Source: Laetmonice hystrix
Lineage: Eukaryota
DNA length: 64,000 nucleotides
Reading direction: 5' to 3'
Assembly: GCA_965235115.1 (NCBI GenBank)
Contig: OZ249436.1
Location: 8,558,001-8,622,000, forward strand
The position numbers were made by a program, and so were the translations under genes. Below, one piece after another: positions 19,546-64,000 of this stretch (position 1 is its first letter; every line of letters begins with the position of its first letter). Under the pieces are notes generated by a model. It had not been told where the DNA came from, ran no database searches, and worked only from the letters and a program-made list of their open reading frames with translations.

Positions 19546-21563
19546 TTTTCTCAGAAGTAGACTCTATTTTGGCGGCATCAGCGAGATCTGTTTTTGAAAT
19601 TGAGTAGACCTAATTAGGCCTAGGCCTAGCTATACAAACTACCACTTTAGTTTTGGGACAGTAGGGTCGCTCGAGGTAAACCGTACCACTTTACAGTCTT
19701 GATCAAGTACCGAGAACCCACAGCAGGCCCGTAGGCCTACCCATGCCCATGGGGGGGGGGGCGCGGGGGGGGGGGTCCAGGGGTTCCCCCATGTCTCCCC
19801 CGGGAGGGAGGGGGCCTCGCCCCTGAGGGTACCCAGGCCCAGGCTACGGCTGTAGGCCCCACGAACTGAATACAAAAGATGGACCCCCCCCCCCCCTCCC
19901 CTTAGGCCAATCCTGGGTACGGGCCTGCACAGCGACACCCAGACACCCAAACCTCAACAATGGGCGCCTAGTTAGCGGCTTCTTCATTCAGATAGGCTAG
20001 GCCTAAAGCCAACCGGAGATCAGGTTAATCGAGCCAATTCAAAAATGTTCAGTTATAGGCCTAAGTCAAGGGGTTCGCTTTACTTAAAATCTGGTAGGCC
20101 CTATAAAAGCGAACCATGCATGCGGTTAGATCTAGATCTATATAAACCGAACCGCCCGGTTCACAAAACCTAGATTCATTGATAGCAAAAACAAACTGGC
20201 ATGGTCCAAGACCACAAAGTGGGTCACTTCATAACATGCTCTGACGCTTGTAACACTGATTCCATATCTAGGCCTAAATGACCCTTTCGCCTTTTGGCAA
20301 CACCATCATAAAAACCGAACCGCCTATAGGGGACAGGCAGTTCTGTTTATAGGTCTATTACAGGATCAGGCGAACCACCCAGAGGTATTTTTGCCCTTGA
20401 AAAAGAAATTGAAGCCAGTCTTGACCAGCTTCATCCAAGAATATAGGCCTGCCTTAGAAGTAGGCCTACACAAGTAGAACCTTCAAGTTGAAATAGCTAT
20501 AGGTCACATTGACTACTACCTATTCATTGTTACTGAATAATTGTGATTTGTAAAGACAGACTTAGAAAAAGTTTAACTTTTGCTAAAACCGCGAAAATGC
20601 ATGGTCACCTGCCGCGAATGACGGGGCCGCTGTGTCATCAGCCATTCACTGCTGCCACCTAGCGATAGTCACTAGAATCATCGTTGGTAGTTTCCCTTTC
20701 CTCCAGAAGAGCGTGCAGCGGTGCTGGTGCTCGACAAATGGTGCAGGGGGCGGCAACAGTTTCACTGGTTCGCTTTTTCTGATGGTTCGGTTTACCCCAA
20801 ACCACCCTAAGCCTATATCATCATAAATCTCATTTATATTACCTCTGAGTTTCTTTGCTCCAAATATAGCCTACTATAGGCCTAATTGTGCACAGATGAA
20901 TGGCTGAGGCCCTTGACCTAGGAGTAGACTCTAGATCTATCCTATAGGCCCCTAGATCTCATCCTCCTCCGCTCAGGGTTGAACCGCTTGCAGTTGCAAT
21001 GATTCACCCCCTCCCGCCTGCCCGCCTATTCTAAGAAACGCGTAGCTCGCAGCGCCATCTGTTTTCGACCTGGCTGCAGTTGACTGCTTAGCTGGGGACC
21101 AGGCCATGCCTGAGGCGCGATTCATAAAAATAAGCGCACAGATACTGAAAAGAAAAGAAGAAGCGGAGGACATATATGTTGGGTGCACCCCATCAATCAG
21201 AAAAGAAGCGACCACGGTGTAGGCCTATTTCATCATCTCTGCAGAGAACTATAGGCTAGGGCCTATATTTCGATGAAGAGAAATTTATCTGATTCTTTCG
21301 GGTGTCAAGGGAGAAGTTTTGGCCCGATTAGGCCTACTGTTCTACATGGACGACGACCCAGAACTTTCCACTCACCAGACCAGTCATAGAATTTCTAAGT
21401 CCAAGAGAAAGAATAGCAACAGAGTGGTTTAGAAACCCGAACGCGTAGGCCTAGATCTAGACGCCTACCTGTAGATTCTACGCGTAGCGGAATTCCCGCC
21501 ACCTTGACACTTGCACGATTTTGGCCACGCAATGGCACGAAAAGTGTCGTAGGGGCCTTTATA

Positions 21564-21963
21564 GGCCCCTACACAGGATGGCGACCTTTGTGCCTCCCGT
21601 GTACGACCATAAAATTTGCCAGGTCGTCGTTGGAGGTTCAAAGGAGGCAGAATGGTTGCCTAGGTCTTTCAAAGGTGTTACACAGGAGGTTCAGACATCG
21701 CCATGGACGCCATGGTCGCCGCGAGTTTTTGAACATGTTCAAAACAGTCGCACAAAAATCGCCGAGGACGTTGGTTGCTCAAAGGTGGCTCAAAGGAGGC
21801 AGAAGGGAGTCACAAGCATTGCCGTGGTTGCAGAATAGAGGCACAAGCATTGCCGTGGTCGCAGGGGAGAATGGAGGCACAGTGGTCGCCCAATGGTCGT
21901 CGAGGAGGTTGGTTGCCCAAAGGTGGCTCAAAGGTCGCCTGGGAGGCAGAAGCATGGCTGAAT
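21564..21963. mobile_element. Truncated PIF/Harbinger-like MITE, inverted relative to the copies at 25078-25800 and 28701-29422
   Basis: Reverse-complement match to ~25425-25800; terminus GGCCCCTACACAGG..GCGACCTTTGTGCC. Confidence 0.75.
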
Positions 21964-22149
21964 GCGTGTTCCTATAAGATTACAGGTTCATACGTGTACT
22001 TGTAGCTACACGTAGATCTACCCGTACACGTGCATCGTACACGTTTATTACTTGTGGAAATAACGCATTTCAAAGTAAACAGCACAGGGTTTTCTCATTC
22101 GTTATCCACGTTCCGAAAATGAAAATGTTCTGCTGTGACATGGAATGTT

Positions 22150-22394
22150 ACACCAGATGAGAGTTACTGTTCAATAATGACATCACACCAGATGAGAGTT
22201 ACTGTTCAATAATGACATCACACCAGATGAGAGTTACTGCTCAATAATGACATCACACCAGAAGAGAGTTACTGCTCAATAATGACATCACACCAGATGA
22301 GAGTTACTGTTCAATAATGACATCACACCAGATGAGAGTTACTGTTCAATAATGACATCACACCAGATGATAGTTACTGCTCAATAATGAAATC
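22150..22394. repeat. 35-bp minisatellite, 7 copies
   Basis: Unit acaccagatgagagttactgttcaataatgacatc, head-to-tail with no spacers. Confidence 0.95.
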
Positions 22395-22919
22395 AAACTT
22401 GTACCAAGCCCTGGATATCCAAGCTGGCACTATAGATCTAATGATAAGTCTCCGTCCCCTAGTCGATCGACTATAGGCAATTCGCATAGCATTAGCGATG
22501 ATATCCACGTCTGCATCTCTTGAGGGTACATTGAATGCACCTGCCATGGTATTACCAGCACCATGACTGACACCACATTGGCTTCCACTCAAGTTTGTAT
22601 ATGTTGAAAATTCAGGAGGCACTTTGCGCTGTGGGTACTCCATGCCGAGAGGTGCCGGACAAAATATGCATAGTTGGAAGCTTCATGATTTGTTGAGGTG
22701 GTAAATGTGGGTTCTTCGCATTGTAAAAAAAAGTTGAGAAATTTTGATCTGCAGTGCTGATTGAATGCTTGGTTCAAACTTTCCCATCCTTATGCGACAA
22801 CTCTCAAAGAATGCATCCTCTGCAGATACATGACGGTTTCCTATATCGATTCCACCCGTGATTGATAAAAAAAATCAAGTTAGATTTATAGGAATTGTCC
22901 GTCAAAGATAACGCGTATT

Positions 22920-23951
22920 CTATAAGGTGGAATTTACCCTGTTGAAGTTTAAACCCAACCAGATAGACAATAATATACTGGTGGCGATTAAAATAACCCC
23001 ACCAATCTCGAGAATGTTGCGATGTCCTGACAAAAAGACTCCCGGGAAGCAGTACTGCAGGATGACTAAAAACACAAGGCGCGCACTTCCAACGACTACA
23101 AAAGCGATCGGTGTCAGCATCTGCTGTGCCGGCACGCTTAACATTGATTCCATTGTCGTGCCCAAACAATGTCCAAGGAAACATAACCATTGCTTGTAGT
23201 TCATCTTGACAACAGGTTCATCAAAGTAAAACATCAAAACGACGGATAGAAGCACGCCTCCGAGTCCGTACCAAAACCAAGCGATCACTGGTGTGACATC
23301 TCTTAGATGTGTCCTAAAGATGATTGATCTAGTTGTTAGAGACAGTCCAGCTATCACAGTGAAAGCATAACCGATAATATCCATGGTTCCGAATGATAGT
23401 CCCAGATTGACACTTTCCTGGCACATAGACACATCTTTCAAAAACGTGCTGTTCAATGTTATATTTTCTGTACATAACACTGGGGGTTGTTTCTTAAAAG
23501 GGGGACTTGGCTGGGTGACCAGAAATCCACCCAGTAGTACACTTGCGACGAAAACGTATTGCGTCACCAACTGTTTCTCCTTTAAAATCAATCGTGACAA
23601 AATCACAGAAGAAGAAAATGTTACCATTTGCTCTACCACAACCTGGTTGCCTAGGGGAATTAGTGCGGACGCTGTAACATTCAAAGTGTTGACGACGTTG
23701 CTAAGGAATACAACTGATGCGAGCCAAGGCCACAGCTGACGTTGAATGTGCACTCCTGGGTTTGATATGGTCACCATCCAGACCAGACAGATGAATAGTT
23801 GTACTCCATAGCGCCCGATGTTTAACTCGAATGGTGGAATGTAGCCGTAAAGTAGTTGCACGGAAGCCCCAGCGATTGCACCGGTGAAACTAGATGAAAG
23901 TCCTGCCACATACCCAGAAAATACTCCAAAAGATGACGTGATGGACACCAT
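22920..23951 (-). CDS. SLC35G-like / EamA (drug-metabolite transporter superfamily) protein, copy A, single coding exon
   Basis: 343 aa from the first in-frame ATG; about 10 hydrophobic segments in two repeats; motifs IPPFELNIGRY, ILSRLILKEK and GHRNILEIGGVILI. Confidence 0.85.
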   Translation of the reverse strand: MVSITSSFGVFSGYVAGLSSSFTGAIAGASVQLLYGYIPPFELNIGRYGVQLFICLVWMVTISNPGVHIQRQLWPWLASVVFLSNVVNTLNVTASALIPLGNQVVVEQMVTFSSSVILSRLILKEKQLVTQYVFVASVLLGGFLVTQPSPPFKKQPPVLCTENITLNSTFLKDVSMCQESVNLGLSFGTMDIIGYAFTVIAGLSLTTRSIIFRTHLRDVTPVIAWFWYGLGGVLLSVVLMFYFDEPVVKMNYKQWLCFLGHCLGTTMESMLSVPAQQMLTPIAFVVVGSARLVFLVILQYCFPGVFLSGHRNILEIGGVILIATSILLSIWLGLNFNRVNSTL

Positions 23952-25077
23952 GGCAAACGCCCGACTGCATGAAGCCCACACTATTCGTGTACCGGTTGGG
24001 TAGGCATACCCAACGTAGGGTTTTTTACGTAGTACGGTGGTATAGTAGAGCCAAAAAAATAAACTCGCCGAAACAAATTTTCATTAGGAAAACACAAAAA
24101 TTTCTCAAAACGACATTTCAAAAGCACGCAAATAGCTTTAAACAGCAACGGCAATCAAACCACATTGCGAAACGATCGACATTCAGGGAACAACTATATA
24201 GGCCTACAGAAGGCCTACAGAACATAGGCCTATTGGTCATTGTGTCATGATAATTAAGGTGATGCGGGCACTATATGATCGTATTACGTGCAATGGAATT
24301 GGCTCACAATTGGTCAGACTGTCACAGTTGTGGCAGAAGGTTGATATGTGATTGTTATATTGCTATACCATTGGGAAAAAGGCATGGCTGATATCTTCAT
24401 CAGTAAGAAAGCCAGACACAAACGATCTGCAGAAATGTATAGCATGAAAGAGGCTAAAACATTTATACCAGCTGTCATCCGGAGGCCGGATGGAAACATG
24501 CACCTTTTGAAACCTTGGCGATCATAAAAATAAGCCATTTCGGTATCTCGGCTGGCACCATAGAGTCTAGATCTATATGCCTACTCGCGCACCTACCGAA
24601 AAGAAAAGTAAGAAGAAACGGAGGACATGTTGGGTGCACCCCATCAATCAGAAAAGAAGCGACCACGGCGTAGGCCTATAGATATTTCATCATCTCTGCA
24701 GATAACTAGGCTAGGGCTTTCGATGAAGAGAAATTTATTTGATTCTTTTGGGTGTCAAGGGAGCAGTTTTGGCCCGATTAGGCCTACTGTTCTACATGGA
24801 CGACGACCCAGAACTTTCCACTCACCAGACCAGTCATAGATTCTAAGTCCAAGAGAAAGAATAGCAACAGAATGGTTTAGAAACCCGAACGCGTAGGCCT
24901 AGATCTATACGCCTACCTGTAGATTCTACGCGTAGCGGAATTCCCGCCACCTTGACACTTGCACGATTTTGGCCACGCAATGGCACGAAAAGTGTCGTGG
25001 CAAGGCGTGCCATTTTGGTGCCACGATCGTGAAGCAGCCCATGCGCACTGTTCGCGCACTGTTCACGCATAGGTTAA

Positions 25078-25800
25078 GGCCCCTTTACACAGGGCTGCGA
25101 CCTTTGTGCCACCTTTGAGCAACCAAAAAAAAATGGTCAGGACGCTCAATGGTCGCCTAAACCCAGAAATTGCTGTTTCTATGCAACTGGTCCAGCGATC
25201 CTTGCGCCTCCCTTGAACCACCCAAAATGCAATTTTTGGGCATTTTCATGACGATCTACGAGCGACCTGCACATCCACTGAGCCACCTGCCGGCCTCTCC
25301 TGTGCTTCCCCTGTGCAACGTACGGCAACATGGGCGACCCACGAGCAATGTTTGGGCAACCATTGAGCCTCTCCTGCGCCTCCTCTGTGTCATCATCGGC
25401 GACCAATGACGATCACTGGGCGACCATTCAGCCATGCTTCTGCCTCCCAGGCGACCTTTGAGCCACCTTTGGGCAACCAACCTCCTCGACGACCATTCGG
25501 CGACCACTGTGCCTCCATTCTCCCCTGCGACCACGGCAATGCTTGTGCCTCTATTCTGCAACCACGGCAATGCTTGTGACTCCCTTCTACCTCCTTTGAG
25601 CCACCTTTGAGCAACCAACGTCCTCGGCGATCTTTGTGCGACTGTTTTGAACATGTTCAAAAATTCACGGCGACCATGGCGTCCATGGCGATGTCTGAAC
25701 CTCCTGTGTACCACCTTTGAATGACCTAGGCAACCATTCTGCCTCCTTTGAACCTCCAACGACGACCTGGCAAATTTTATGGTCGTACACGGGAGGCACG
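25078..25800. mobile_element. PIF/Harbinger-like MITE with the right end truncated; duplicated at 28701-29422
   Basis: TAA|GGCCCCTTTACACAGGGCTGCGACCTTTGTGCC terminus; many internal ggcgacca/gccacc repeats. Confidence 0.7.
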
Positions 25801-26542
25801 AAGGTGGACGGACGCGTGGACGGTGCTGCGCTACCAGTAAATATGAAACGTGTAAACTCCTGTTTCATGACATACAGATGTCTGCCACGGGAACCAAACG
25901 ACCGTATAATAACAAGTCATTATCATTCTTTGTCATGTCCTTGGCCAAATTGAGATTTGTCTTCCCTTTTTTTAACTAGAGCGAGGTTTTTGACAAGGTC
26001 TCTCCACGGGCTATGCGCCTGTCGAACAACACGCGGGACAGCTCACAGTGGCGCTTGAGAGAGTCCTATATTTTTTGTAGGCCTACATTGTACACCTGAC
26101 CATCTCAAAAAGACCACAACAGTTGGCAAGGACGCCATGTTTTTTTTTATCTACTTCCGATTCTACACGTACACGTACACGTCCGGTCATTTTACGTGTA
26201 TCTAAAGTAGATTACACGATTACAAGTTCATACGATTCAGGAGGCACTTTGCGCTGTGGGTACTCCATGCCGAGAGGTGCCGGACAAATATGCATAGTTG
26301 GAAGCTTCATGATTTGTTGAGGTGGTAAATGTGGGTTCTCCGCATTGTAAAAAAAAGTTGAGAAATTTTGATCTGCAGTGCTGATTGAATGCTTGGTTCA
26401 AACTTTCCCATCCTTATGCGACAACTCTCAAAGAATGCATCCTCTGCAGATACATGACGGTTTCCTATATCGATTCCACCCGTGATTGATAAAAAAATCA
26501 AGTTAGATTTATAGGAATTGTCCGTCAAAGATAACGCGTATT

Positions 26543-27574
26543 CTATAAGGTGGAATTTACCCTGTTGAAGATCAAACCCATCCAGGTAGACAATAATATA
26601 CTGGTGGCGATTAAAATAACCCCACCAATCTCGGGAATGTTGCGATGTCCTGACAAAAAGACTCCCGGGAAGCAGTACTGCAGGATGACTAAAAACACAA
26701 GGCGCGCACTTCCAACGACTACAAAAGCGATCGGTGTCAGCATCTGCTGTGCCGGCACGCTTAACATTGATTCCATTGTCGTGCCCAAACAATGTCCAAG
26801 GAAACATAACCATTGTTTGTAGTTCATCCTGACAACAGGTTCATCAAAGTAAAACATCAAAACGACGGATAGAAGCACGCCTCCGAGTCCGTACCAAAAC
26901 CAAGCGATCACTGGTGTGACATCTCTTAGATGTGTCCTAAAGATGATTGATCTAGTTGTTAGAGACAGTCCAGCTATCACAGTGAAAGCATAACCGATAA
27001 TATCCATTGTTCCGAATGATAATCCCAGATTGACACTTTCCTGGCACATAGACACATCTTTCAAAAACGTGCTGTTCAATGTTATATTTTCTGTACATAA
27101 CACTGGGGGTTGTTTCTTAAAAGGGGGACTTGGCTGGGTGACCAGAAATCCGCCCAGTAGTACACTTGCGACGGAAACGTATTGCGTCACCAACTGTTTC
27201 TCCTTTAAAATCAATCGTGACAAAATCACGGAAGAAGAAAATGTTACCATTTGCTCTACCACAACCTGGTTGCCTAGGGGAATGAGTGCGGACGCTGTAA
27301 CATTCAAAGTGTTGACGACGTTGCTAAGGAATACAACTGATGCGAGCCAAGGCCACAGCTGACGTTGAATGTGCACTCCTGGGTTTGATATGGTCACCAT
27401 CCATACCAGACAGATGAATAGTTGTATTCCATAGCGCCCGATGTTTAACTCGAATGGCGGAATGTAGCCGTAAAGTAGTTGCACGGAAGCCCCAGCGATT
27501 GCACCGGTGAAACTAGATGAAAGTCCTGCCACATACCCAGAAAATACTCCAAAAGATGACGTGATGGACACCAT
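26543..27574 (-). CDS. SLC35G-like / EamA transporter, copy B
   Basis: Intact ORF differing from copy A at 7 residues (V>I, F>S, K>R, L>P, I>T, L>M, N>I). Confidence 0.83.
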   Translation of the reverse strand: MVSITSSFGVFSGYVAGLSSSFTGAIAGASVQLLYGYIPPFELNIGRYGIQLFICLVWMVTISNPGVHIQRQLWPWLASVVFLSNVVNTLNVTASALIPLGNQVVVEQMVTFSSSVILSRLILKEKQLVTQYVSVASVLLGGFLVTQPSPPFKKQPPVLCTENITLNSTFLKDVSMCQESVNLGLSFGTMDIIGYAFTVIAGLSLTTRSIIFRTHLRDVTPVIAWFWYGLGGVLLSVVLMFYFDEPVVRMNYKQWLCFLGHCLGTTMESMLSVPAQQMLTPIAFVVVGSARLVFLVILQYCFPGVFLSGHRNIPEIGGVILIATSILLSTWMGLIFNRVNSTL

Positions 27575-30409
27575 GGCAAACGCCCGACTGCATGAAGCCC
27601 ACACTATTCGTGTACCGGTTGGGTAGGCATACCCAACGTAGGGTTTTTTACGTAGTACGGTGGTATAGTAGAGCCAAAAAAATAAACTCGCCGAAACAAA
27701 TTTTCATTAGGAAAACACAAAAATTTCTCAAAACGACATTTCAAAAGCACGCAAATAGCTTTAAACAGCAACGGCAATCAAACCACATTGCGAAACGATC
27801 GACATTCAGGGAACAACTATATAGGCCTACAGAAGGCCTACAGAACATAGGCCTATTGGTCATTGTGTCATGATAATTAAGGTGATGCGGGCACTATATG
27901 ATCGTATTACGTGCAATGGAATTGGCTCACAATTGGTCAGACTGTCACAGTTGTGGCAGAAGGTTGATATGTGATTGTTATATTGCTATACCATTGGGAA
28001 AAAGGCATGGCTGATATCTTCATCAGTAAGAAAGCCAGACACAAACGATCTGCAGAAATGTATAGCATGAAAGAGGCTAAAACATTTATACCAGCTGTCA
28101 TCCGGAGGCCGGATGGAAACATGCACCTTTTGAAACCTTGGCGATCATAAAAATAAGCCATTTCGGTATCTCGGCTGGCACCATAGAGTCTAGATCTATA
28201 TGCCTACTCGCGCACCTACCGAAAAGAAAAGTAAGAAGAAACGGAGGACATGTTGGGTGCACCCCATCAATCAGAAAAGAAGCGACCACGGCGTAGGCCT
28301 ATAGATATTTCATCATCTCTGCAGAGAACTAGGCTAGGGCTTTCGATGAAGAGAAATTTATCTGATTCTTTCGGGTGTCAAGGGAGCAGTTTTGGCCCGA
28401 TTAGGCCTACTGTTCTACATGGACGACGACCCAGAACTTTCCACTCACCAGACCAGTCATAGATTCTAAGTCCAAGAGAAAGAATAGCAACAGAATGGTT
28501 TAGAAACCCGAACGCGTAGGCCTAGATCTATACGCCTACCTGTAGATTCTACGCGTAGCGGAATTCCCGCCACCTTGACACTTGCACGATTTTGGCCACG
28601 CAATGGCACGAAAAGTGTCGTGGCAAGGCGTGCCATTTTGGTGCCACGATCGTGAAGCAGCCCATGCGCACTGTTCGCGCACTGTTCACGCATAGGTTAA
28701 GGCCCCTTTACACAGGGCTGCGACCTTTGTGCCACCTTTGAGCAACAACAAAAAATGGTCAGGACGCTCAATGGTCGCCTAAACCCAGAAATTGCTGTTT
28801 CTATGCAACTGGTCCAGTGATCCTTGCGCCTCCCTTGAACCACCCAAAATGCAATTTTTGGGCATTTTCATGACGATCTACGAGCGACCTGCACATCCAC
28901 TGAGCCACCTGCCGGCCTCTCCTGTGCTTCCCCTGTGCAACGTACGGCAACATGGGCGACCCACGAGCAATGTTTGGGCAACCATTGAGCCTCTCCTGCG
29001 CCTCCTCTGTGTCATCATCGGCGACCAATGACGATCACTGGGCGACCATTCAGCCATGCTTCTGCCTCCCAGGCGACCTTTGAGCCACCTTTGGGCAACC
29101 AACCTCCTCGACGACCATTGGGCGACCACTGTGCCTCCATTCTCCCCTGCGACCACGGCAATGCTTGTGCCTCTATTCTGCAACCACGGCAATGCTTGTG
29201 ACTCCCTTCTACCTCCTTTGAGCCACCTTTGAGCAACCAACGTCCTCGGCGATCTTTGTGCGACTGTTTTGAACATGTTCAAAAATTCACGGCGACCATG
29301 GCGTCCATGGCGATGTCTGAACCTCCTGTGTACCACCTTTGAATGACCTAGGCAACCATTCTGCCTCCTTTGAACCTCCAACGACGACCTGGCAAATTTT
29401 ATGGTCGTACACGGGAGGCACGAAGGTGGACGGACGCGTGGACGGTGCTGCGCTACCAGTAAATATGAAACGTGTAAACTCCTGTTTCATGACATACAGA
29501 TGTCTGCCACGGGAACCAAACGACCGTATAATAACAAGTCATTATCATTCTTTGTCATGTCTTCCCTTTTTTAACTAGAGCGAGGTTTTTGACAAGCTCT
29601 CTCCACGGGCTATGCATATACGACAAATAATTAGGGGGTGTTACTAGATATATAAATGACTGATTACGGGTGTTACGGGACAGAAACTGTATTATGGTGT
29701 TAGTTAGAATCACAGTTATACACTCAACCACTGCCTTCCATCATATGGCCAACCGCCTTCATATAGGACTCCATCATTCATGACGTTGGTCGTCCATTCA
29801 AGATGTCGTGAAGGTGTGCGAGGGCAGTCGCGAGTCGGCTCATATCGGGTTGGATCGTGTCGCCCAAAATCGTGACAGTGTGCGGCAAGCTTTACGCTAA
29901 CGAGCCATACCGACTGTGGGCGCCCCTCATCGATGAGAAAATCGGGGATGATGAAAAATCTGGTGGATCCGCCTTTACGACTTCTCGCGACTGTGGGCGA
30001 GTGCCAGCGCGCCTCATCGATGACAAGTGATGGCTGGCGAAAAGTAGGCGTAAGGACAACATCAAACGTGTTTGATTTCTCTGGCCGATTCTTGACAGCG
30101 CGCACTCAGTCGCCAGTCGCCAGCAGTCGCTAGCGCTTCATACCGATTCCGGGTGCCATTGAACGATGTCATGCTCTCATGGAAGACAGGAAACCACTTG
30201 CGCCTACCAGCGCTCTCTACCGACCCATGCATGGCGATCCTGGAGATCGCAATAGATCGTAGAACTGCTTCACTGTCCTGCCGCTAGGGGGCCGAGAGAG
30301 CCGTGTTACAACCGTCTAAATCGCGGGGAGCGCAGAATAAAAAGATCCGGCTAGCATCATTACACAGTCCCCATCACCTGAATACTTCACTGCGACATTA
30401 GCTTCTTGA

Positions 30410-30633
30410 GGCTGTTCCCTTATGAACAAGGGTGAGCTGAGCAAGGGTATAGGCCTAAGCATGCAGAAGCTCATGCTAACCGTTTTGCTTACTGTTTTCG
30501 CTTTTTGGGGTGTTTTTCCGCGAGCACGCCTCATGGAAAAAAGCAACCCCCAAAAACGCGAAAACGGTGTGAATGAGCTCATGCTCACCCTTGCTCAGCT
30601 CAGCTCACCCTTGCTCACGGTGGATAGACTCTA
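30410..30633. mobile_element. MITE with imperfect TIRs
   Basis: caagggtgagctgagcaagggt is inverted as acccttgctcagctcagctcacccttg. Confidence 0.6.
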
Positions 30634-33293
30634 AGTAAACAAAAAAACCGGGCCCTGAACTCATAGCAGCCTAGGACCAAGTTAAGCCTACGAAAATCAG
30701 TACATGAGATGCAACTGGAACAAACGTACGGGGAAGGCAAAATCAATGCATGTTAGAGAATCAATTGTGTTCATCATTTGACCAGTTTGACATGGTTGAA
30801 GCTGACAAATTAATGATGGATAAAATTCAGTATCAACATTAGAAATCGTCTTCACCGTTTCATCCAATTGCGTCTTATGCACTGATTTGCGTAGGCCTAC
30901 CTATTAACTTGGTCCAAGGCTGCATTTGGATTGTGGAGGGAAATATTTTAGGATTTTGTTTTTTTCTGAGACCTATAATATTAGGCCTATGCGCTTGTAT
31001 AGTTGCCCGGAACATCTAATTAAAAATTGTGAATTAAGACATTTAGTCGGCCTGAGGCTCTAGGCCTATCTGTTCGCAAAATCTCTCCTTCGAATTCTTA
31101 TAAATGTTGGACAAATATCTTGCATTCAGGGACTCTTCCTCCAGGGTTGGGCGTGGAAGCCCTACAGAAATTACAATGGTAAACTAATAAGAAACACCTG
31201 TCTGGCGGGCTGTTAGACCTACACCTAAAGTAGGCCGTGACAAATTCTTATCGGTTATAAATACTGACGTTTAGCCCATGGGATATAGATCTAGGCCAAC
31301 AGATAACAAAGACAATATGGCCGATAGTCCACAAATGTAGTCCATGAACAGGTGAGGGAATTATTTTCTTCATTTCGTTTTGAAACTTCTGACTAAATAG
31401 TCCTACCAACTGCTTGTATTTAAGTGTCCTCTCGGCGGTTACCTGCACAGATAGTCTACTGGGCCTATATCTCAATGGGCAAGATGGTTTACAATTAGAT
31501 CTAAGTCGGGTTGTTGATCTGCAGGATATATGGTTGAATGCAGGACAGGTCTGCGTTAACTCTCCCCAAATATATCATAGAATACATCATAGATCTATGC
31601 GATTTTATTATCTCTTGAGTAATTATGGTCCTATAATGTTAACAATTGTCACTTTTCAAACATAGCCGTAGTAAAACTCTCACCGGCCTATAACCGTGTC
31701 ATTTTCGAAAACGTCTTAAACTATACTTTATGGAGACCCATGGCCATATTTCCAGTTATAGGTGGTCTGTTTTTTGTTTGGTACAATGTGGCATGATCCG
31801 CAGTTTTGCCTCGATATTTTGAGAGACACTATTAAATAATATAAAGAAGTACACACACAAATTTTAATCACAAATAAGATTGCACATAAGAAAATCTGTA
31901 ATCTGGTGTATGATAAGCAGTGTATACATAATGTGCAACAAGTATAGAGCGAACTGACCTACATATAGCTCAAACAGGTGAATGTGGAAATCTACCTAAG
32001 ACTCATGCATTTGTGGAATCTGCACGGCCTTTTGGCTATTATTTTTAGTTTACTTATTATAAAGTAACCCACCCTAAGCATGGTGATTCTAATCATCACC
32101 AAAGAATAACCTAATGGCCCACCATCCTGACTGCTTGATTCCCCCATCCCAATCCCCAACACTCTTCGCTTCATACGACCTGACTTATTTTATTGACACA
32201 ACCTATTACAATTAACACCATGATTACAATTATAATGTACTGGTAAATATTCGATTAAAATAAAAGAAAGAGAGTAAATATCATGAATACTATTGCTATT
32301 ATATGTAATTATTGTAGCATTTGCCTAAATGATTTGCCTGTACTCCGTTACAGTGTTGAAAATTTTTCTTCTTGTTCCATTTTCCGATCTATTCCGAACT
32401 ATCATATTATTGCAGGAACACTAGGTCTAATGGCATCGGGGCTTTGTAATTAATGTTCTCATGATACCGTACATACCCCCCCCCCCCCACCCCCCACAAT
32501 TCTCTTTCAGTAAAATGAACGCACTTCACCAACATTCATCGTCTTCTTCTTTGTCACTGTAGGCCTACGCGTTTGTGTCATACTGTATAAGTTTGAATGT
32601 GCTTATAATGTTTTAGATGAACCTGCAAAATAGCTTTAAGGGGCGGCTTCGGCTTGTAACTGGCTGGATTGACTCTATATATCTGGTGTGGCATGGTGTT
32701 ATAGCGCATTGAGCGGACACGCGGATCTCCATCGGTGTAGGTGACACTAACATAAACTATAGACTTAAGTCATAGTGGCATAAACTCAAAATTTTCTATA
32801 CCTATAGAGTTTCATTTTATATTTTGCATCTATAGCATGAAAATGATCGCAACAATGGATCCGTGAATTTGAGATAAAGGAGGATCTTGAAATGCCTGTA
32901 GAATTAGATCGCTACTGCGGTAGAAGCATGCACTACTTTGGAAATCGCTATAAAATATGACTGCTCATTTAGGCCTCTATTTTACTTCACCTTCATGGCA
33001 TCAAGACATAGCTTGGAAAGAAGCTGCAATAGCCTCAGTGTTACGAGTCTTTTTCTCCTTTTATCGCGTTGGTACAATCCACTTGCAAAAGACGTGGCTA
33101 GATTCACAAGACTGCGAGTAAAATTTTGGTTAAAATCAAAAGTTCCAGGCTATGGCTTCTGCAAATGGTAGGCCTAAAAACCCTATAAAACTATACTAAC
33201 ATATTAACTTCGCAATTTGGACTATAACGTCATGTACTAATTCTCATCATGACAGGGACTACATTTTGACGGATTTCTTCTCTTTTGACTATA

Positions 33294-35551: not shown

Positions 35552-36081
35552 GAGCAAACCAATCGATTCTTCTGTGTTTGTACAGTCTATATATAGTAGA
35601 GACAAGTAGCATGAGAGTATCATACGATATACATCTCCGTGCACATTAGGAGTTTCAGCGTATTGTAGGGTGCGTAGGCCTATACCTCTCTCACACGAGA
35701 AGGTATCAGTAGGCACTCGCAGGTTGAGAATGTAGTTGACAAGCGATATAAGAAACGAAAGCAGCTAGATCGGAACCCTAAATTAGGCATAGAACTGTTA
35801 CACGTTCTATGATATAGGGTATACCTGTATTTTTCAAATATACATATTCAAATTACAAACTAACCTGTTCTCAGCTTTTATTGAATGTTTTGAATAACAC
35901 AATGTGCAACGCCTTCTATATGATAACTTTCATATGAACGTACAGAAAATAAAAGTATACATGAATTTATACATTTTTATACAAGAAAGTTGTAGGAACG
36001 TAGCGACGTCTTATGGCATAATATCCACCCGTTCGTGTAGGCCATCATACATGTATGGTTGGACGGGAACTAATGTGGAAA

Positions 36082-38416: not shown

Positions 38417-38775
38417 CACAGCCAGGGGCCGTCCCATCACTGAGGCCTGCTAAATATTACAGGGTTCCCACAGGTTGGCTATATTGAAGTTTCATGACTT
38501 TTCCAGACCAAAACTCTCAAATTGCATGACCAATTCCGGATAAAATTAATTAAATACACAGAGGCCCTCGGCCTCTACTTTTAGAACTGCTGATAGCCGG
38601 CAGCGATCGACAATCAACCAGGTCAGCCTGCAGTCGTTCATGATAAACCCGATATGGCAGGATTAGTTCAAGTTTATCCAGTCATTCCGTGGGGTCATTC
38701 CCAGTTTAGGCCTAATCAGGCCGAGGGCCGACAACCGCACGTGTGTAAACACAGCCATGTGACTGGCCCAACAGT

Positions 38776-39520: not shown

Positions 39521-39669
39521 ACGGCCACATGTAATGAATGACCGGGAAGGGCTCACTTTGGGCTTAGACGGGATTTTAACAAACATATAAAACGACGTTA
39601 GTAAACTTGCGTTATACTTCTAGATCTACAGATTAAATTACTTAATTAACCAACCATTCCGTAATCAAA

Positions 39670-49149: not shown

Positions 49150-49862
49150 TAAATCTAGCCTAAAATATTTTTAACTCACATGGCGCGATTCTCCTATGTT
49201 TCCAACTGTGCGCCACTCCCCGGAAGTGGCTCGGTTCCACCTTTAGTATCGTCCCACAGGACGCCGTCACTTGCGTTGCACTCCCTATTCTGACAAAACT
49301 TGCCAAAAAGTCCCGTTTTTGTGGATCGATAGACCCCGACAATGGAGTAGGGGCGGATCTAGGATTTGTCCTGCACTATTTGGATCAGAGGAATATTTGC
49401 GATGTGAAGAATATAAACGCAGATAAATGTACACCAATATTGAATGCAACGTAGGGTTTCCTATTGTATGTAACGTAGGGTTTCCTATTGTATGTAGTCT
49501 ATCGATGAAGGGGTAGGCCTATTACTACTACATATTAGTACATTGTAGGATTGCATCTAGAATGTGAATCCCGATGCCTCCGTGCTAAAGACTCCCACAC
49601 ATTGTCCAGATCTAAAACAAAAAACTATTTCAGGCATAATGGACGTTTATTATAGCACTTTTGTAGTTATCCAACTGTACGGATAACGACACATTTACTG
49701 TCGTTCTAATATGACAGTCGCTCGTCGATGGTGTTGCAATCACGATGAATGAATGTAAATTGACTGAATTACACAATTTTGGTCCTTGATATATCAACAC
49801 CAATCAACATGTTCAAGCTTAACAATTTTTCTCTTTTTTTGCACGATTTCTCTCATGTTCTC

Positions 49863-53924: not shown

Positions 53925-54391
53925 TGGCAAGCCGTTTTAGCACATGTATATTCATATTTAGTGATATCACTAAATCAATTAGAGACATATCTAATTCAAT
54001 TTCTGATATCTGTAATTCATTTAGTGATTCTGTAAATAAGAGAATTACAGATATAAAAAATTGAATTGCAGATATCGCTAAATGAACTAGAGATATCAAA
54101 AATTGAACTGCAGATATTAATTAATTCCACTTCCTATTTTTGATATCACTAATTCATTTAGTGATATCTCCAATTCCATTTCTGATATCTCCAATTCACT
54201 TAAAGATATCTCCAATTCTATTTTTGATATCTCCAGCGCTATCACATTCTTTTTTTTTTATCTCTAATATCATTAGGCCTAAATATTTAATTATATCGAC
54301 AATGATTTAGTGATATCAAGAAATAAATTAGAGATATCTCTAATTGATTTAATGATATCACTCTAAGAATAAATGTTAAAACGGCTTGTCA
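53925..54391. mobile_element. AT-rich MITE with GATATC internal repeats and TA TSD
   Basis: TA|TGGCAAGCCGTTTTA ... TAAAACGGCTTGTCA|TA; ~22-bp periodic gatatc units in inverted blocks. Confidence 0.8.
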
Positions 54392-54791
54392 TACAAGTAA
54401 CGGTTATCACAATGCATCGCGCCTAAAACTACTCGGACTAGACTTAAAGAAGAAGTAGAAGAAAATGAAGAGGAAAAGAAGAAGAGGAGGAAGATAGAAG
54501 ATTCTTTACTTTACAAAAAAAAACAAAAAAGGACACCTTCCGGAAGTTCTTGAATAAGAATGCTCTTATGTGCTCTCATAATAATATGTTGACACTGGTT
54601 ATATATATTCTATGACCATGCATTTTTTCTTCAGAGATATCAAGTATAATATTAAGAAAATTCAATTTTAGATATACATGACATTGTTTTATTTATTATG
54701 TTTTATGAGACATTTCGTGAAAAACTTGACGTTACATACTTTGATAAGGATTTAATTCCATCAAAATTTGAATGCAGGTTTATAGCCTGAA

Positions 54792-56042
54792 GACCTCCAC
54801 ACACCTGGGCATTTTACGCCGCGATTTCACGTCGCGTGAAACGCGTTGCGAAAACGCGTTGTAACCCACAATTGAATTACAATGAGAACACTTCGGCTTG
54901 GCGTAAAAAAAACACGCATTGCGACCGCTGTGTGAAATGACCAAAACCTCAGAATAGGTTTCTGACATGTGCGTTTCACGCAGCGTGTTGTCTCGGACGA
55001 TCATCCGTTCAGCCAATAGGCATCCAGTATCTGTGGTCAGACCACCTTGCCCCTGATGATCCCAGGGTGATCTGTATTCCATTTGACCATCTACCAGCCA
55101 GCAGGATGGGGCAGAAAGGAATTAGTGGACCAGAAACCGAACGGTTGATAGTGACCGGGAAGAATCCCTGCCTATACGACAAACAATGTCCCTCCTATAA
55201 AGATGCACAGAAACAGTATGACAATTTGCATTTTGCCATTATGCAAACAGCCAGCTATGACCGCGTGCGTTTTCCGCGCAAGTGGGAACCATTTATCGCA
55301 GCGCGAAACGCCCAGTCGTTACGCCGGGCGTTTCACGCGACGTGCTAACACGGTGTAAAGTGCCCAAGTGTCAATCGGAACTTCCGAGATCATTTCATTT
55401 CCGGTTGCGAAATACCCTCGGATGTAAGACAGGCCCAAAGCTACAAGCGCTAAACGCCTGTGAGGTCACATCACCACTCATGTTCTACCGCCCTGCTAAG
55501 TAGTCGCGGAAACGTTTGCTTCTGAGGAATCTGACACAAATTTCGTACATTTCGGTGTATCCGGTAGTATTGGAATGGGATTTTAACACAAATTTCAGTC
55601 TCAAAAAAGTTGAAATCCGCGAATCCGGAAGATGTTTATCATTGCCCTCAGCAGCGATACAAATTGGGAATCCCGCGGTCATGACGTCATATGCCCGAGG
55701 GAATCCCAAATGTGTCTTGTAGCATGTCTGGCCTGTCTGAGCTGCAGGCTCGGGCTAAGCATATAGTATACATGTTGCGACTATTTCAGTTCAAGCGTAA
55801 CATATTTGTTATTAGGCCACCAAATTCCAGCAATTTCGAGCAACATAAATACAGTAACGGAGTTGTTGTCTAGAAACAAAACAGTAGGCCTACTGGTGTT
55901 ATGCGTCTGCCACCGCCGGTCACAAGACCCAATCGAATCATGTGACTGGAAGTAGTTTCAACATGGCAGCGCCCGAAATACATCAAAGTGTTTTACGTAC
56001 GGAAAGCCCGAGATGTTGCGATTGCACAAGTGTGTGGAAGCC
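54792..56042. mobile_element. Harbinger-derived element with a MADF relic, interrupted in its right TIR by a Mutator-like MITE (55372-56024)
   Basis: Left end GACCTCCACACACCTGGGCA; right end split as TGCCCAAGTGT [insert] cacaagtgtGTGGAAGCC. Insert CAATCGGAAC...GTTGCGATTG has a 9-bp TSD (cccaagtgt/cacaagtgt). Peptide ETERLI..KNPCLYDKQCPSYKD. Confidence 0.7.
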
Positions 56043-57054
56043 TAGTCTACTCATAAAAGGTACACCGTCGTCAGTTTGACGGTGCTTTAGATTAGACACG
56101 TAGGCCTACCTTTAACCTGTACGACATGCATGTCAAAATTACCTAGACCATAACATATTGTTGTAGCCTAATAGGCCTATGCATGACTTCCGCATTTGGT
56201 TTGGTTAAATCCAGTCTGCGAAATAAAAGAAACTACAGTTTATGAATACGAACTGCCATATTCAGATATTCGTTGCAGCAGAGTTAACTATACATGTATA
56301 GCTATATTAATCTTTTGTCACCAAAGCAATTGCCACAAAATAAACTCGTGGGGAAGTGCAGCGACATGTTAGCATAATCCATACTAGGTCATGTTTACAT
56401 GTCCCAGCCCTTTTAAGCACTTGAAGATTCATGCCTGTGGCCTAGATTCTATATTGTGGCCGGTAAGCGCCAATAATGACGGTAAATAGGACCCGACAAC
56501 GATCACAAACTCAAAAAGACGGATACGAATAGGGAATGACAAACGCAAATCCGAAACGACAACACTGCTATTCATGTTCAGGGGGCCACACTCTGGACGT
56601 ATAGCAAGCCGTTCTAACATTTTTTCCTATTTAGGAATCAGGAAGTGCGTAGGTGCTATTCGTCTCGCTCAGAATGGCATTTCTCCTATCATACATTGTG
56701 CACATAGTACTAGAAAAAATTCCTTCCGATACCATTGGCCTGATAAACCTTCTATTAGTTTGTGTGCAGCATTTGAAACCTATCTCGGTGCGCACCGAGA
56801 TAGAGCTATTTCCTATGGCGGGGCGTGTCAGGGTCTCCACAGGCCTTCTGAGAGAGCCCTATTTGTGCCGTTATCCATGAAAAATTTTGATTTCCTTTGT
56901 TGTGAATCTATTTCCATGATAGGTGGGCTCACAGTCACATAAACATCAACAAAATTAAAAATTAAAAAATTGAACTTTTTTGCCTTTAAATATCATGTTG
57001 CTATGGATGAAATGTACGTTTCATATTTGGGTGGAATTGACGGAGTTCCTTTAA

Positions 57055-58834: not shown

Positions 58835-59022
58835 CTAAAACATAAAACAAATTAGGCCTACATTTTAAATAGGCACCCTTAGCATTAAACATGCACACAT
58901 CAATATTATTTGAGAGAAGACTGCTAGCAGAAAGTGTTGATCAGTAGGAACATGACAGATCCGGAAGAGGCTCCTAAAATTATATTTTAAATAGATCCCT
59001 TAGCATTACACACGCACACATC
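58757..59022. repeat. Diverged ~140-bp tandem duplication of the SLC35G-like exon start and its acceptor
   Basis: 58757-58902 versus 58903-59022: gcagaaagtgttgatc..gacagatccgga..gaggctcctaaaa..ccttagcatta..gcacacatca occurs twice. Confidence 0.85.
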
Positions 59023-59149
59023 ATAGGTTCGCCAATCGGTAGGTCAGTTTATACATCCTACTAGGTGCGCCCGCTAATATTTACATTGATATGCCTAGTA
59101 TAATAATCGGCTTTTTACTATCACAGATGTTATGACAATTGACGTGTCT

Positions 59150-59460
59150 AATATGCCTGCCCTTTGCCTCCGGGTTGAACTTCCAACCCTTGCATGGTGC
59201 AGCAGCGAAAAACTTCAATAAGACCCCAAACTGAAGTACACAGATGTGACACCCATTCGAGAGCTTCAAGTGCCTTTAAACCCCAGTGAAAGGGAGAACA
59301 TTTATGCCGAGATGGACGCCTTGCGTCAGGAGCGTGATACTGCGAGAGCAAGAACTGAACAACTTGAGGGCTCACTGCTTACTAGTACCACCCTATCTGT
59401 GAAGTCCATTGAAAACGACACCAAGTGCAGGATGATGACAGGCATTCCCTACTCAAAGAA
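59150..59460 (+). pseudogene. Relic of an ISL2EU/PIF-Harbinger-type transposase
   Basis: Coiled coil followed by LSVKSIENDTKCRMMTGIPY, resembling the S....D...(FY)TG(L/I)P motif that precedes the HTH of these transposases. Confidence 0.5.
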
Positions 59461-59794
59461 TGCAACTGAAACATTTCGTCGGCGGCGCAGATACAGCAGT
59501 TGCCGAGTTTCACTATTTATAAAAGGCCGGGGGGGGGGGGGGGGGAGGTTGCCTGTCACAAGCATGTGACAATTAATTAAAATTATGCACTACCAATGCA
59601 GACACAGCAATTGCTAGTTTAAAGTAAAGCATAGAACATTACCAAAAAGACGAGAAATATACGTTGAGCTCAGCCCAGGCTAACCTGCCGGAGGTTGACC
59701 TTGAGGTCAACCTTATGAATATTAATAGGACCTGCATTGGCGTCGTCTTAACGGTCCTCACCGTAAGCTTACTTCTCGAGAAAATGCCTGATAG

Positions 59795-59902
59795 TCTTGG
59801 ATACACAAATGTGCCCCTCCCTAACAATACAGTTTGTAGCACTCTGACTTGATACGGTTTAACACGCGAAATTCCAAACTTTAGCTCCCCTGATTTTAGC
59901 AT
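59795..59902 (-). pseudogene. Relic of a RecQ-type helicase N-terminus (motif 0), probably transposon-derived
   Basis: KFGISRVKPYQVRVLQTVLLGRGTFV fits FG....(R/K)P.Q......L.G.D..V; breaks off before Walker A. Confidence 0.5.
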
Positions 59903-61368
59903 CGTCGCCTCGCTTCGGTTGGCATACGATCACCGGCCTGCTCGGCCCGGTGTCGCCAGCGCTGGCTGTCGGTCTTGGCCTCTGTCGTGTCCGTGGATTA
60001 AGGTTAAAGTTACACTATTTTTACAACCTGTAATAATATCGACACCCTGTCATATAAATCAGCTTAGTGTCACATGTAAAACTCAAATACATTGAAGTGA
60101 AACTAGACGTGGCCACCCTTAACACGCTAGTGTATAGGGGAGAGTCAACGGCTAAAGTGAGACCAACCAAATGTAGGCTAGGCCTAATGTGAGAACGCTC
60201 AGCTGGATCCGTTGCAATCTAACGCTCTACCTTCGAACTGCTTGACCATTTTGGATAACCGTGTAACAGGGGAATTCCCACGCTGAGTTTCAGCGCCTCT
60301 CACAGTCTCAGGTCATTCGGGAACCCTCGGGAAAGTCCGCCACCTTCCGGTGGGTGCGGATTTTCACCTCGGGTGTAATGGACAGATTTGTGTGACTTTG
60401 TGATGCGGCGCAAATGAATACTCGAGTAAGCAGGCAGGGGGGCACAATGCGCGCTGACCAAGTAATCCCTACAGCGTAATGGCAGCGGTTGATGAGTGTT
60501 TGCATTATGCACTTGAAAACTGTCCGATAACCAAAGGAAAGTAGCGGCAGTTAAACCAAAACAGAGAGAAACATGCTCAACTCGGAAATGGCTCATGTCT
60601 CCATTCGTCCCATCGTCGGCCACCAACACTCGCTGTGCTCCACTCGCTGTCAGTGTCAGTCACAGCTACCGACTATGGAATACCGGCGACGACATGCGAG
60701 ATGCGAGACAGTGTGTTTGGGTTAGGGTAAAGGTTAGGCCTAGGGTTAGTGTTAGTTTTCACTTTAGGGAACGTTTAGCCCCCAAATTAGGCTATTGTTA
60801 AATAGGCATGTGGATCGTGATGTCGGTGTCGTTGTTGGTGTGTCAACGATAACATGAGAACACACATATAAATATGAAAGCATTGAACATGCATAAAGTC
60901 AGTATCACATGTGACTATCATGGTAAATAAAATATATTCAAAACATCGCACATTTGTGATATCACACATAATTTTCAACATTGAATACAAATATATTCAT
61001 TATTGAATTTTGCAACGAATATCATGCCATAGACCTCGCAAGCCGTAGAGCTGTACTGTACTCGATGCCTAATGCTGCCAGGCAGTTATACGAAATCTCG
61101 TATTGTCACGCTACTTGCAACGAGTATTTATTGTCCAGAATAAGGAAACACATCGGCGCTGGTTAACTGATGTTCTGGTCTCTAGTTTTTAGTTTCTAGT
61201 CTCTATGGACCTCTATGTATTAATTATGTATTACTGCAATAAAGTGCTTTGAACTGAATTGAACTGTAGGCCTAACAGTTGGTTTGAATCGTCGAGCGGC
61301 TGCCTTTTTATAGGCTACGACATGTGATCGTGACACGTGATAGTGCTGTAATCGCTATTCAGTGTTTT

Positions 61369-62285
61369 ATACCGGTGACACATTGATATCTTTAGCGCTC
61401 TCAAGGCGATATAAAAAGTTAGACCCCTATAGCGTTATCAAATGTTGTGTCACGCCCGATATGAAAAGAAAGGGCAACAATCGCGCAATAAAGAAATTCC
61501 TGATGAGGTGGTCTGATGCCGCTATATTTTCATAGCGCAATACCTTATAGCGGAATAGTTTCGGTGAAAAGAGCGCCACAGACTCGCTTCATACCACGTG
61601 ACAACCCCCGTTTTCATAATGATGACGTCATGCGTTACCGTAATGACACATTCGTTTTGCTACTGATGACACACCAATATCGGAATGATAGCGGCGCGGT
61701 TTCGATATAATTGGCAGTGTGTCAACGAGATCGAGAGTTATATCGCTTTTGTTGCGCTATCGTTAAACCGCTTCGCTAGCACTACAATATCGCTTGCCAT
61801 CACACTTGTTGGTGTGTCAACGATGCACTAATACCGTTGACACACCAACAAGTGTGATGGCAAGCGATATTATACCGTTGACACACTGAGATTTTGTAGC
61901 GCTCTCAAGCCGATATAAAAAGTTATTGCGTTATAAAATGTTGGTGTGTCACGCCCGATATGAAACGATAGCGCAACGATAGCGCAATAAGAAATTCTTG
62001 CTCCTGAGGTGGTCTGATGCCGCTATATGTTAATAGCGCAACACCTTATAGCGGAATAGTTTCGGTGTATCAACAGGAACATAACTATAGAGCGCCACAG
62101 ACTCGCTTCAGACCACGTGACAACCCCCCTTTCGATAGTGATGACGTCATGCGTTCCCGTAATATCCCTCGTAATGGCGCATTCGTTTTGCTACTGGTGA
62201 CACACCAATATCGGAATGATAGCGGCGCGGTTTCGACATAATTGGCAGTGTGTCATCGGGTTCGAGAGTTATATCGCTTTTGCGT
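61369..62285. mobile_element. Two head-to-tail copies of one TIR element with a perfect 37-bp-arm palindrome at the junction
   Basis: 61369-61750 resembles 61872-62282; arms 61786-61822 and 61835-61871. Confidence 0.8.
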
Positions 62286-64000
62286 ATCGCGTATCGCGTA
62301 TGCCAGAGTTTGGGGATAATTCTGATAGGTCGGCATACGCTGGCTAAATCGTCAAGGTGTGACCGGGCCATTGCCCAACACAATGTTCCAACTTACCCCA
62401 TCATGGCCCATGTGTAGGGTTAGTTTGAACATCTGAGATAAGCCTACGTTTTGTCGATTATGTAGGTCATGGTCAGATATCCTAGGCAAATGATGTAATA
62501 TTTTTATAAGATGAATATACGATAATTCTAAAGTTAGCATCTACAAGTCAAGAAAGGTGAATCAAACTTTACCATGTCTCTAGCTGTCTGTGGCAGTAGT
62601 TGGTGCTGGTGATGGTGCAAGATCTTACGCGATGTTCATCGATGTGAGGCGGTCGCCGTCCGCGTGTAAAATGGAAACGTGGCAAACGTCTTTGCTAAAC
62701 GTTGTGCCAGCTGTCCTTCCATATCAGCGTGACGCACCATGTATGGCGTATCGTCTTTTTTTGTCGTTTTCTTTCCTTTGTCTGTCTTCTTAATCACAAA
62801 TCTTGATAGAATAGATGCAGAATCCTAAAAGATGTAGGCCTACAGCTGACACTTCATGGTCAGACGATTCCAAGCATATATAATACACATTGGTCTAATT
62901 GCCTTTTCATTCAACAGAATTGCAAGGAAGTGGCAAAAAATGAGCAAAATTGCATGTCCAATGCCAGGGTGCACTTATTCACCTCCACTTGTTCTTTGTA
63001 AAAATGTACATAATTGCAAATATTTGCTGTTTGTTCCATGATTCTAGGATGCTATTCTTTGGTATGCAACCTCTTTGAAGTAATATATTTGTATTACTTC
63101 AAAATATATTACTTTACTAGAATCTATAGGCGCGACAGGTGCCTGGCCGCCAGTAAAAGTGTACTTGGTGATTCCATGGCCAGCCGTATCCTGCCTCCTC
63201 GACAATAAACGCATGGAAACCTGAAATGTCACAGCGTTTGTGATCCCCTTTTCCTTGTCCTTTCCTTAATTAACCTTGGGGGCCACCATGAGGTTGTGGG
63301 GATTGGGGGGGGGGGGCGTTCAGTTGACGTGCCTTACGACCGACTCGGTTAAAGCCTTTCAGTGAAACAACGTCCTGTCTGAGAGGACCATCTGCTTTAT
63401 GAGGCTGACCTAGGCATCACTTTGCAATTATATCAGTTATTAAAAGTACAGTATTAGAGTAGAATTATTTCTAAAAAGTGAACTTGGTCTTAGTCGACTA
63501 GATCCGTTCATCCTACCGTTCGAAGATCTGGCGTCTGATACAACACGTGATAACCCAATGGTAGCCGCCATACGGAACTGTGCCACAGATCGACCCACTG
63601 ACGGGGAACAGGTTGTATTGCTACATCCCTTTAGAAGAGTCGTATTGCACTTTTCTCAGCCTTGCACCCTCCCGGCTCCAAGTGGACACTTTGCGACTCA
63701 TCATACTCTCAGTGTTTTACTATCAGCACTAGTTGCCAGACTACGACCGAATGTGGACCCATGCAAGCTCCTTCCGACCCATCAGCCAGTTCATGGGAGA
63801 CAGACCCGAGTCTATAGATAAGCGATACTTTCAGACGTGACCGTTCACTGTACATGTGATTAGTGGTTTCGTGGCTGTCAAGCTGGACCTCCAGAGTGGT
63901 GTCCGACACAACCACCTTGTTTATGTTAAGATATAATCATTTTGTAGCCACAACCAAAACCTTGGATTTGGATATGTTGTCTGCGGGACTAAAAATGCAA

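Follow-up and report, generated by a model that had tools for sequence, protein, structure and literature searches.

The genome of Laetmonice hystrix (GCA_965235115.1) contains the palindromic octamer TAGGCCTA in very large numbers, and 48 exact copies lie in the 64,000-nucleotide stretch of contig OZ249436.1 from position 8,558,001 to 8,622,000, which is referred to here as the window and numbered from its first letter. The octamer arises by insertion of GGCCTA at a plain TA, genome-wide and mostly in unique DNA. Most likely, with a probability that we put at roughly 0.7, these insertions are scars left by the excision of TA-targeting cut-and-paste transposons of the pogo/Tc1 type that have 5'-GG...CC-3' ends. 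The mechanism would be the known excision footprint of the Tc1/mariner/pogo transposons; out of the ordinary are the letters GG in the scar and the number of its copies. Such footprints are textbook matter at single loci; here, one footprint would rank with the commonest 8-mers in a whole genome of 627 Mb.

Abundance of the octamer and its gain by insertion at TA

How far does the octamer exceed chance? In the window, the first copy starts at 19615 and the last at 62835, and there is none in 1-19614. One hundred dinucleotide shuffles of the window gave a mean of 0.56 copies and a maximum of three, and an order-3 Markov model of the window predicts 1.95. Only poly-G ranks higher among the 8-mers of the window, and 48 of its 58 AGGCCT hexamers sit inside the octamer. 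Pfam-supported coding sequence (the exons of a KNTC1-like gene, three open reading frames (ORFs) for EamA-type transporters and an F-box ORF) contains no copy; site 21446 lies inside an unannotated 186-aa ORF, and site 39259 overlaps the end of a 115-aa ORF. A preliminary description of this DNA, made from its letters, had estimated 45-50 copies by eye against about one by chance, with none before 19.6 kb and none in coding exons, and the counts bear it out on each of these points. It had also supposed that a segmental duplication supplies a few of the sites, and eight are indeed local copies. Five of these (27822, 27848, 28294, 28402 and 28517) are duplicates by way of a 99.2% tandem duplication (22610-25939 = 26235-29561), and three more (21220, 21329 and 21446, with counterparts in the copies at 24.6 and 28.2 kb) are in common with an older 93% copy (21143-21550). 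This leaves about 40 independent sites, an excess still far above chance. An assembly artefact in the OZ249436.1 record does not account for the motifs, since 28238-28617, which holds three of them, is matched with 0 differences by contigs from three runs of one sample.

The excess is genome-wide. The 35 contigs of the assembly carry 168,757 copies (0.27 per kb), against 3,469 of the reversed word. A sample of 120 stretches of 10 kb (1.2 Mb), taken at fixed coordinates on 12 contigs, has 291 copies where 15-22 are expected; 36 stretches are empty, and the highest count in any one stretch is 19. (Labels beginning with L denote sampled or fetched loci.) Five stretches with a satellite or tandem repeat carry 46 of the 291 sites, and the remaining 115 carry 245, with a mean of 2.1 and a variance of 8.4 per 10 kb. 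At 7.5 copies per 10 kb, and 18 per 10 kb between 19.6 and 40.4 kb, the window is thus a hot region but not a unique one.

The octamer also has relatives. Among all 256 TANNNNTA words, only TAGGCCTA and TAGATCTA (17 versus 0.9 expected) stand out in the window. The palindromes enriched in the sample are TAGGCCTA, TAGATCTA (83 versus 15-17) and TACATGTA (104 versus 30-41), and only this form, TA-XY-Y'X'-TA, is enriched. Across the sample, the density of TAGGCCTA per kb co-varies with that of the other two words (rho = 0.17). The window has one overlapping array TAGGCCTAGGCCTA, with its shared TA, at 19615, and the sample has three, where 0.0 are expected.

Insertion polarity can be read from sister copies of repeats. 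Each motif site with 70 bp on either side was compared by BLAST with 1.48 Mb of sequence, satellite sites being left out (n = 322), and 3,000 sampled TANNNNTA sites served as controls. A spanning paralog was present for 49 of the 322 motif sites and for 966 controls. At 13/49 motif sites versus 7/966 controls, the state found most often among the paralogs is a clean 6-bp gap that leaves TA (Fisher p = 9e-14); at two further motif sites, a 6-bp gap leaves another dinucleotide. Plain TA is found in all 14 paralogs of L166_8583, all six of L164_5375 and all three of L192_1180. At motif sites with the clean 6-bp difference, plain TA is the ancestral state and TA plus letters plus TA the derived one. 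Sister copies thus differ by +GGCCTA indels, as the preliminary description had anticipated, with 13 clean 6-bp differences against seven substitutions. Within the window, site 37299, in a copy of a short interspersed element (SINE)-like repeat at 37266-37473, has an 8-bp insertion at TA, GGCCTATA, relative to 20/20 other copies, and site 55885 has six bases more than its sole paralog in the sample, which reads TG.

Could the motif merely have been carried and multiplied by dispersed repeats and satellites? A satellite of ~865 bp, in the first 90 kb of contig 1 (19565-90405) and at L068, L095, L107 and L133, accounts for 31 sample sites; many of its monomers have TAGGCCTA and others plain TA, and here the scar has been multiplied along with the satellite. 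A 51-bp tandem repeat (L117:1173-1640) has the motif in each unit, paralogs have it in common at 13 of 49 sites, and there are the eight local duplicates among the 48 window sites. As the main cause, however, such carriage is largely refuted. The sequences that flank the window sites are unrelated to one another, motif sites are rarer in repeats than the controls (49/322 versus 966/3,000 with paralogs, p = 4e-11), and satellite monomers with and without the six bases coexist (22 with TAGGCCTA, 12 with plain TA). A single repeat family is likewise not the answer, only 49 of 322 sites having any paralog in the 1.48 Mb.

Probable excision footprints and their candidate donors

How would six bases come to be inserted at a TA? 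Integration of a TA-targeting element would duplicate the TA. To excise the element, its transposase would cut the non-transferred strand two bases in from either terminus, giving the flanks TA-GG and CC-TA, and end joining would fuse these to TA-GG-CC-TA. Each hop would add a scar while the copy number of the element remained low. Overlapping arrays like TAGGCCTAGGCCTA and mixed arrays with TAGATCTA would also be accounted for, since every scar would restore two TA targets.

Transposases of the Tc1/mariner group make their cut in the non-transferred strand a few nucleotides in from the end of the element; after end joining, the TAs are separated by its terminal 2-4 nucleotides, as in the TACAGTA/TACTGTA of Sleeping Beauty (PMC6943129, in excerpt). 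As with Sleeping Beauty, so far as that excerpt describes it, a TA duplication would bracket the terminal nucleotides of the element here, and the scar would be a small insertion at the former TA. The differences are that here 2+2 letters (GG+CC) make a palindromic 8-mer, whereas the Sleeping Beauty scar has three letters, and that the scale is another one, about 169,000 copies. Literature searches on genome-wide excision footprints brought up no footprint described at such a scale among the matches listed, and those for TAGGCCTA, alone or with transposon, only primers and bacterial sites among the matches listed. The footprint of the Tc1/Tc3 type, with 2+2 letters, is TACATGTA. It has the same TA-XY-Y'X'-TA architecture and is enriched in this genome too, where it agrees with the CAGT ends of pogo/Tc1 families; its terminal dinucleotide is CA, whereas that of TAGGCCTA is GG. 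Most of the resident pogo/Tc1 families examined end in CAGT, and yet GG scars outnumber CA scars here by about three to one.

The scars themselves have a sharply defined length. Against 245 exact TAGGCCTA in the non-satellite sample, a single additional base in the center is G or C at 26 sites (7.2 expected) and A or T at 12 (8.9 expected), and TAGGGCCCTA has 0 occurrences in it. This 2+2 peak is consistent with GGG ends that are cut with a defined stagger. (An asymmetry between TACAGTGTA, with 34 occurrences, and TACACTGTA, with 8, was not used; it is probably due to one repeat family.) At positions -3, -2 and -1, the scars favor A (.39), T (.43) and A (.38) or G (.35), a profile that is identical for TACATGTA; mixed target classes were tested, and there was no excess of matched A..T or G..C scar flanks. 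A recent scar of the CA...TG type is found in L185, a Tc1-like element, in which TA has become TACATGTA at element position 87 by a private 6-base insertion, absent from four 98.5%-identical sisters.

Elements with GG...CC ends reside in the genome and in the window itself. The window has a 401-bp miniature inverted-repeat transposable element (MITE), M1, at 2079-2479 (2077..2481 with the flanking TA), with the ends GGGCGCCTAAGT...ACTTAGGCGCCC. A genome search gave 907 candidates, the 40 scored being 94-97% identical, and 29 of 30 fetched copies end TA-GGGCGCC...GGCGCCC-TA in unrelated flanks; with its GG...CC ends, M1 belongs to the non-autonomous TA-target elements that reside in the genome. 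(At L059, a young CAGT-ended pogo copy sits within an M1 copy.) An autonomous TA-target transposon with GG...CC termini, which the preliminary description had only envisaged, turned up as P1, a pogo-type (DDE_1) family of 3.77 kb (L226-L228) with the ends TA-GGGGAAGGTGGGG...CCCC-TA. Its ORF of 937 aa is intact and has HTH_psq, HTH_Tnp_Tc5 and DDE_1 domains; six full-length left ends at 99-100% identity and one fragment were found. P1-type terminal words also form a tandem array with a 68-bp period on contig 10 (25107633-25109951). A second DDE_1 family, P2 (L223-L225), starts with GGG (TA-GGGTAAGCGTGCC), as does M2, and all four resident families (M1, M2, P1 and P2) read TA-GGG...CCC-TA. The base at -1 is a purine in 11 of 12 P1-type half-sites (p = 0.007), which fits the flanks of the scars. 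The suggestion that TAGGCCTA is an excision footprint is thus backed by the insertion of GGCCTA at TA, by these resident elements and by the enriched TACATGTA.

A pogo-type transposon, Passer, leaves footprints of 0-4 bp at excision (PMC9976928, in excerpt). P1 has in common with the Passer/pogo superfamily, as the excerpt presents it, the TA duplication, short terminal inverted repeats, a DDE_1-type transposase and two helix-turn-helix motifs. It differs in its longer transposase (937 aa versus 400-500 aa) and in ends that start GGGG, and it is known from sequence alone.

Other candidates fared less well as donors of the GG scar. The target of M1 is nearly always A-TA-T (58/59 half-sites), whereas A...T flanks are found at only 25/245 scars; M1 therefore cannot be the main source and is at most a minor one. 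Most of the delimited pogo (DDE_1) and Tc1-like (DDE_3) families end TA-CAGT, and these ends rule out pogo L054-57/61, L058-59, L053, L060, L210-213, L217-218 and L215/229 as well as Tc1-like L183-188. The ends of Tc1-like L194-197 differ, mariner (PF01359) is nearly absent, with only seven decayed matches, and a 2.3-kb element in L090 with GGGAGCG ends lacks a transposase ORF. An inverted-repeat scan by terminal dinucleotide was non-specific, TA flanks being no more prominent than others, and a boundary-based family scan of 1.26 Mb yielded too few families, mostly TTAA-flanked elements. MITE families bounded by tTA-AAGG... (window ~57047-57586 (-); L154, L166, L065, L108, L142, L126 and others) probably target TTAA or TWA and are unrelated to the TA-GG scars.

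A number of observations weigh against excision of GG-ended elements as the origin of the octamer. No excision event was seen, and no site was seen with an element in one copy and TAGGCCTA in another. There is no GGCCTA indel among 12 of 64 indels listed for 19001-33500 in the run contigs of the one sample. The two-base stagger is deduced from the scar itself. Among the 49 sites with paralogs, 14 differ by gaps of other lengths, 13 have the same motif and seven differ by substitution; only two window sites have informative paralogs, the insertion at 37299 being of 8 rather than 6 bp and 55885 having one paralog. Zero TAGGCCTA lie inside 11 kb of M1 copies or in the young autonomous copies.

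The remaining difficulties concern the donors, and they also speak for another source, in which the 6-bp insertions are real and come from extinct or undiscovered TA-target elements, from abortive integration or from some other sequence-specific insertion activity. The 168,757 scars stand against about 1,100 exact GG-type ends (292 of the P1 type, of which a single tandem array holds many, and 851 of the M1/M2 type), which implies either hundreds of hops per extant element or donors that are extinct or undiscovered. The target of M1 is mismatched to most scars. From the ratio of exact to one-mismatch copies, the mean age of the scars corresponds to about 6% divergence, so most of them are older than today's P1 copies with their 99-100% identity. 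Finally, no GA...TC-ended donor for TAGATCTA was found among the families delimited. On the other hand, four independent resident families start TA-GGG, the flanks of P1 agree with those of the scars, the CA...TG analogue ties scars to resident CAGT-ended elements, and, with cut-and-paste elements, scars can be expected to outnumber copies. A source other than excision of the GG-ended pogo-type families found here is unlikely on this evidence.

If all of the scars are insertions, 168,757 x 6 bp amounts to about 1 Mb of new sequence, or 0.16% of the genome. As excision scars of GG-ended elements, they would be a countable and datable record of cut-and-paste activity that is invisible in copy numbers, with hundreds of scars for each surviving element. 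Motif-discovery pipelines would take such a mutational signature for a regulatory element.

CpG content, gene starts and the regulatory alternative

Why are the scars so unevenly distributed? The preliminary description had placed them in clusters at putative promoters and had taken them to mark open chromatin. The clusters are real (11 copies in 19.6-21.5 kb, five in 24.2-24.9 kb and seven in 37.0-39.4 kb); as promoters, these places remain putative. Clusters lie directly 5' of three minus-strand EamA ORFs. A further gene of the window is KNTC1 (Rod)-like: the domains KNTC1_N, ARM_KNTC1_1st and ARM_KNTC1_2nd match colinearly in 3160-13302 (-), which is therefore the 5' part of the gene, with the N-terminal exons. 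It contains no TAGGCCTA. There is also none in 13.3-19.6 kb on its 5' side, which counts against a simple promoter rule.

The link to open chromatin agrees, weakly, with CpG content. The observed/expected ratio (o/e) of CpG is 0.28-0.6 in the KNTC1 gene body versus 0.7-1.1 from 14 kb on, where all 48 motifs fall. When the sample is ranked in quartiles of CpG o/e, TAGGCCTA reaches 0.13, 0.20, 0.27 and 0.25 copies per kb (Mann-Whitney p = 1e-5), a rise of about 2-fold from the lowest to the upper quartiles, and the flanks of M1 lean to CpG-rich DNA too. At the genome density, an empty KNTC1 gene body of 13.3 kb is only mildly unlikely (p about 0.03-0.06). The CpG-rich DNA, with its roughly doubled density of scars, is probably unmethylated in the germline. 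This doubling fits, without proving it, an element preference towards accessible chromatin, or else a lower retention of scars in gene bodies. If the regional bias holds in chromatin data, the scars would be a historical map of accessible germline DNA.

The same distribution might be expected if TAGGCCTA were a cis-regulatory or insulator palindrome, the site of a host factor (possibly pogo-derived), selected near gene starts. The octamer is a perfect palindrome, it clusters immediately upstream of EamA ORFs, and it is denser in CpG-rich DNA and missing from coding exons. A comparable motif is the DRE of Drosophila, TATCGATA, a palindrome of the promoter/insulator type; like TAGGCCTA, it has 8 bp and starts and ends with TA, and it is concentrated near gene starts, as TAGGCCTA may be. 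Unlike the DRE, TAGGCCTA is generated by 6-bp insertion at TA, not by substitution, and forms overlapping arrays, as well as mixed ones, in which a TA is shared. The motif is also present in satellites and tandem repeats (46 of the 291 sample sites), two other TA-XY-Y'X'-TA words behave alike, and there is neither a fixed spacing nor any flank beyond a target profile like that of Tc1. The upstream side of KNTC1 lacks the motif, and we know of no factor that binds TAGGCCTA. Selection as a regulatory site is therefore a highly improbable origin of the octamer, although some scars may have been co-opted secondarily. A broader role would be that very frequent hops of GG-ended pogo-type elements, favoring unmethylated gene-proximal DNA, are a leading source of small regulatory insertions, of which a subset has been adopted as binding sites, for example of a pogo-derived protein. 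This is a speculative and rather improbable extension of the excision reading; if true, the host would have gained a regulatory vocabulary written by transposons.

Arrangement of the scars and other features of the window

From left to right, the first cluster of TAGGCCTA has 11 copies (19615..21453); TAGGCCTAGGCCTA forms an overlapping array in it at 19615-19628, and 21446-21459 is the composite TAGGCCTAGATCTA. Five copies follow at 24199..24901, 120-820 bp upstream of the EamA ORF at 22920-24080 (-), with TAGGCCTAGATCTA at 24894. One copy (26078..26085) lies between the two tandem copies, and the duplicates of the five at 24199-24901 are found at 27822..28524, upstream of the second EamA ORF at 26543-27703 (-). 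Six are scattered over 30450..33176 (30450, 30892, 30982, 31061, 32560 and 33169). Ten lie in 35675..40388, including 37299 in the SINE-like repeat copy, and here the composite array TAGGCCTAGATCTAGGTCTAGACTAGATC runs from 39375; the composite TAGGCCTAGATCTA is found in the window at 21446, 24894, 28517 and 39375. A lone copy at 49514..49521 is preceded by 9 kb (40.4-49.5 kb) without any. Four copies are in 54274..56179 (among them 55885), and five in 58853..62842, of which the one at 58853 is 19 bp past the 5' end of the third EamA ORF, 57791-58834 (-). The 17 copies of TAGATCTA extend over 7079..39628, and 15 of them fall in 20.1-39.6 kb alongside the clusters of TAGGCCTA.

Each 3.3-kb copy of the tandem duplication (22610-25939 and 26235-29561) holds a single-exon EamA-type transporter ORF and a 202-aa ORF that belongs to no family. 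The older third copy, at 21143-21964, is partly inverted and has an intergenic piece and the 202-aa ORF. A 6-bp indel at 24679-24684 versus 21228 (TAGATA/TATAGA) sets the older copy apart from both younger ones; it adjoins TAGGCCTA and is another small insertion at the same TA, a non-palindromic one.

An open frame of 592 aa at 45344-47122 (+), in GC-rich DNA and without a Pfam match, is inside the 9-kb stretch that is free of TAGGCCTA. Fifteen G or C homopolymer runs of 11-19 bases occur in the window, eight of them within 14.9-19.9 kb (14971-19896) and others at 32476, 34310, 37250, 47305, 52625, 59529 and 63305; the run at 37250-37265 takes the place of the 5' part of the SINE-like copy. 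In the 1.2-Mb sample, the most over-represented 8-mer is GGGGGGGG (1,095 versus 22 expected), and an abundant repeat is indicated by a set of overlapping 8-mers, TTATGTCACCTGTCGATCGGTACAT among them, that are in 10-30 fold excess.

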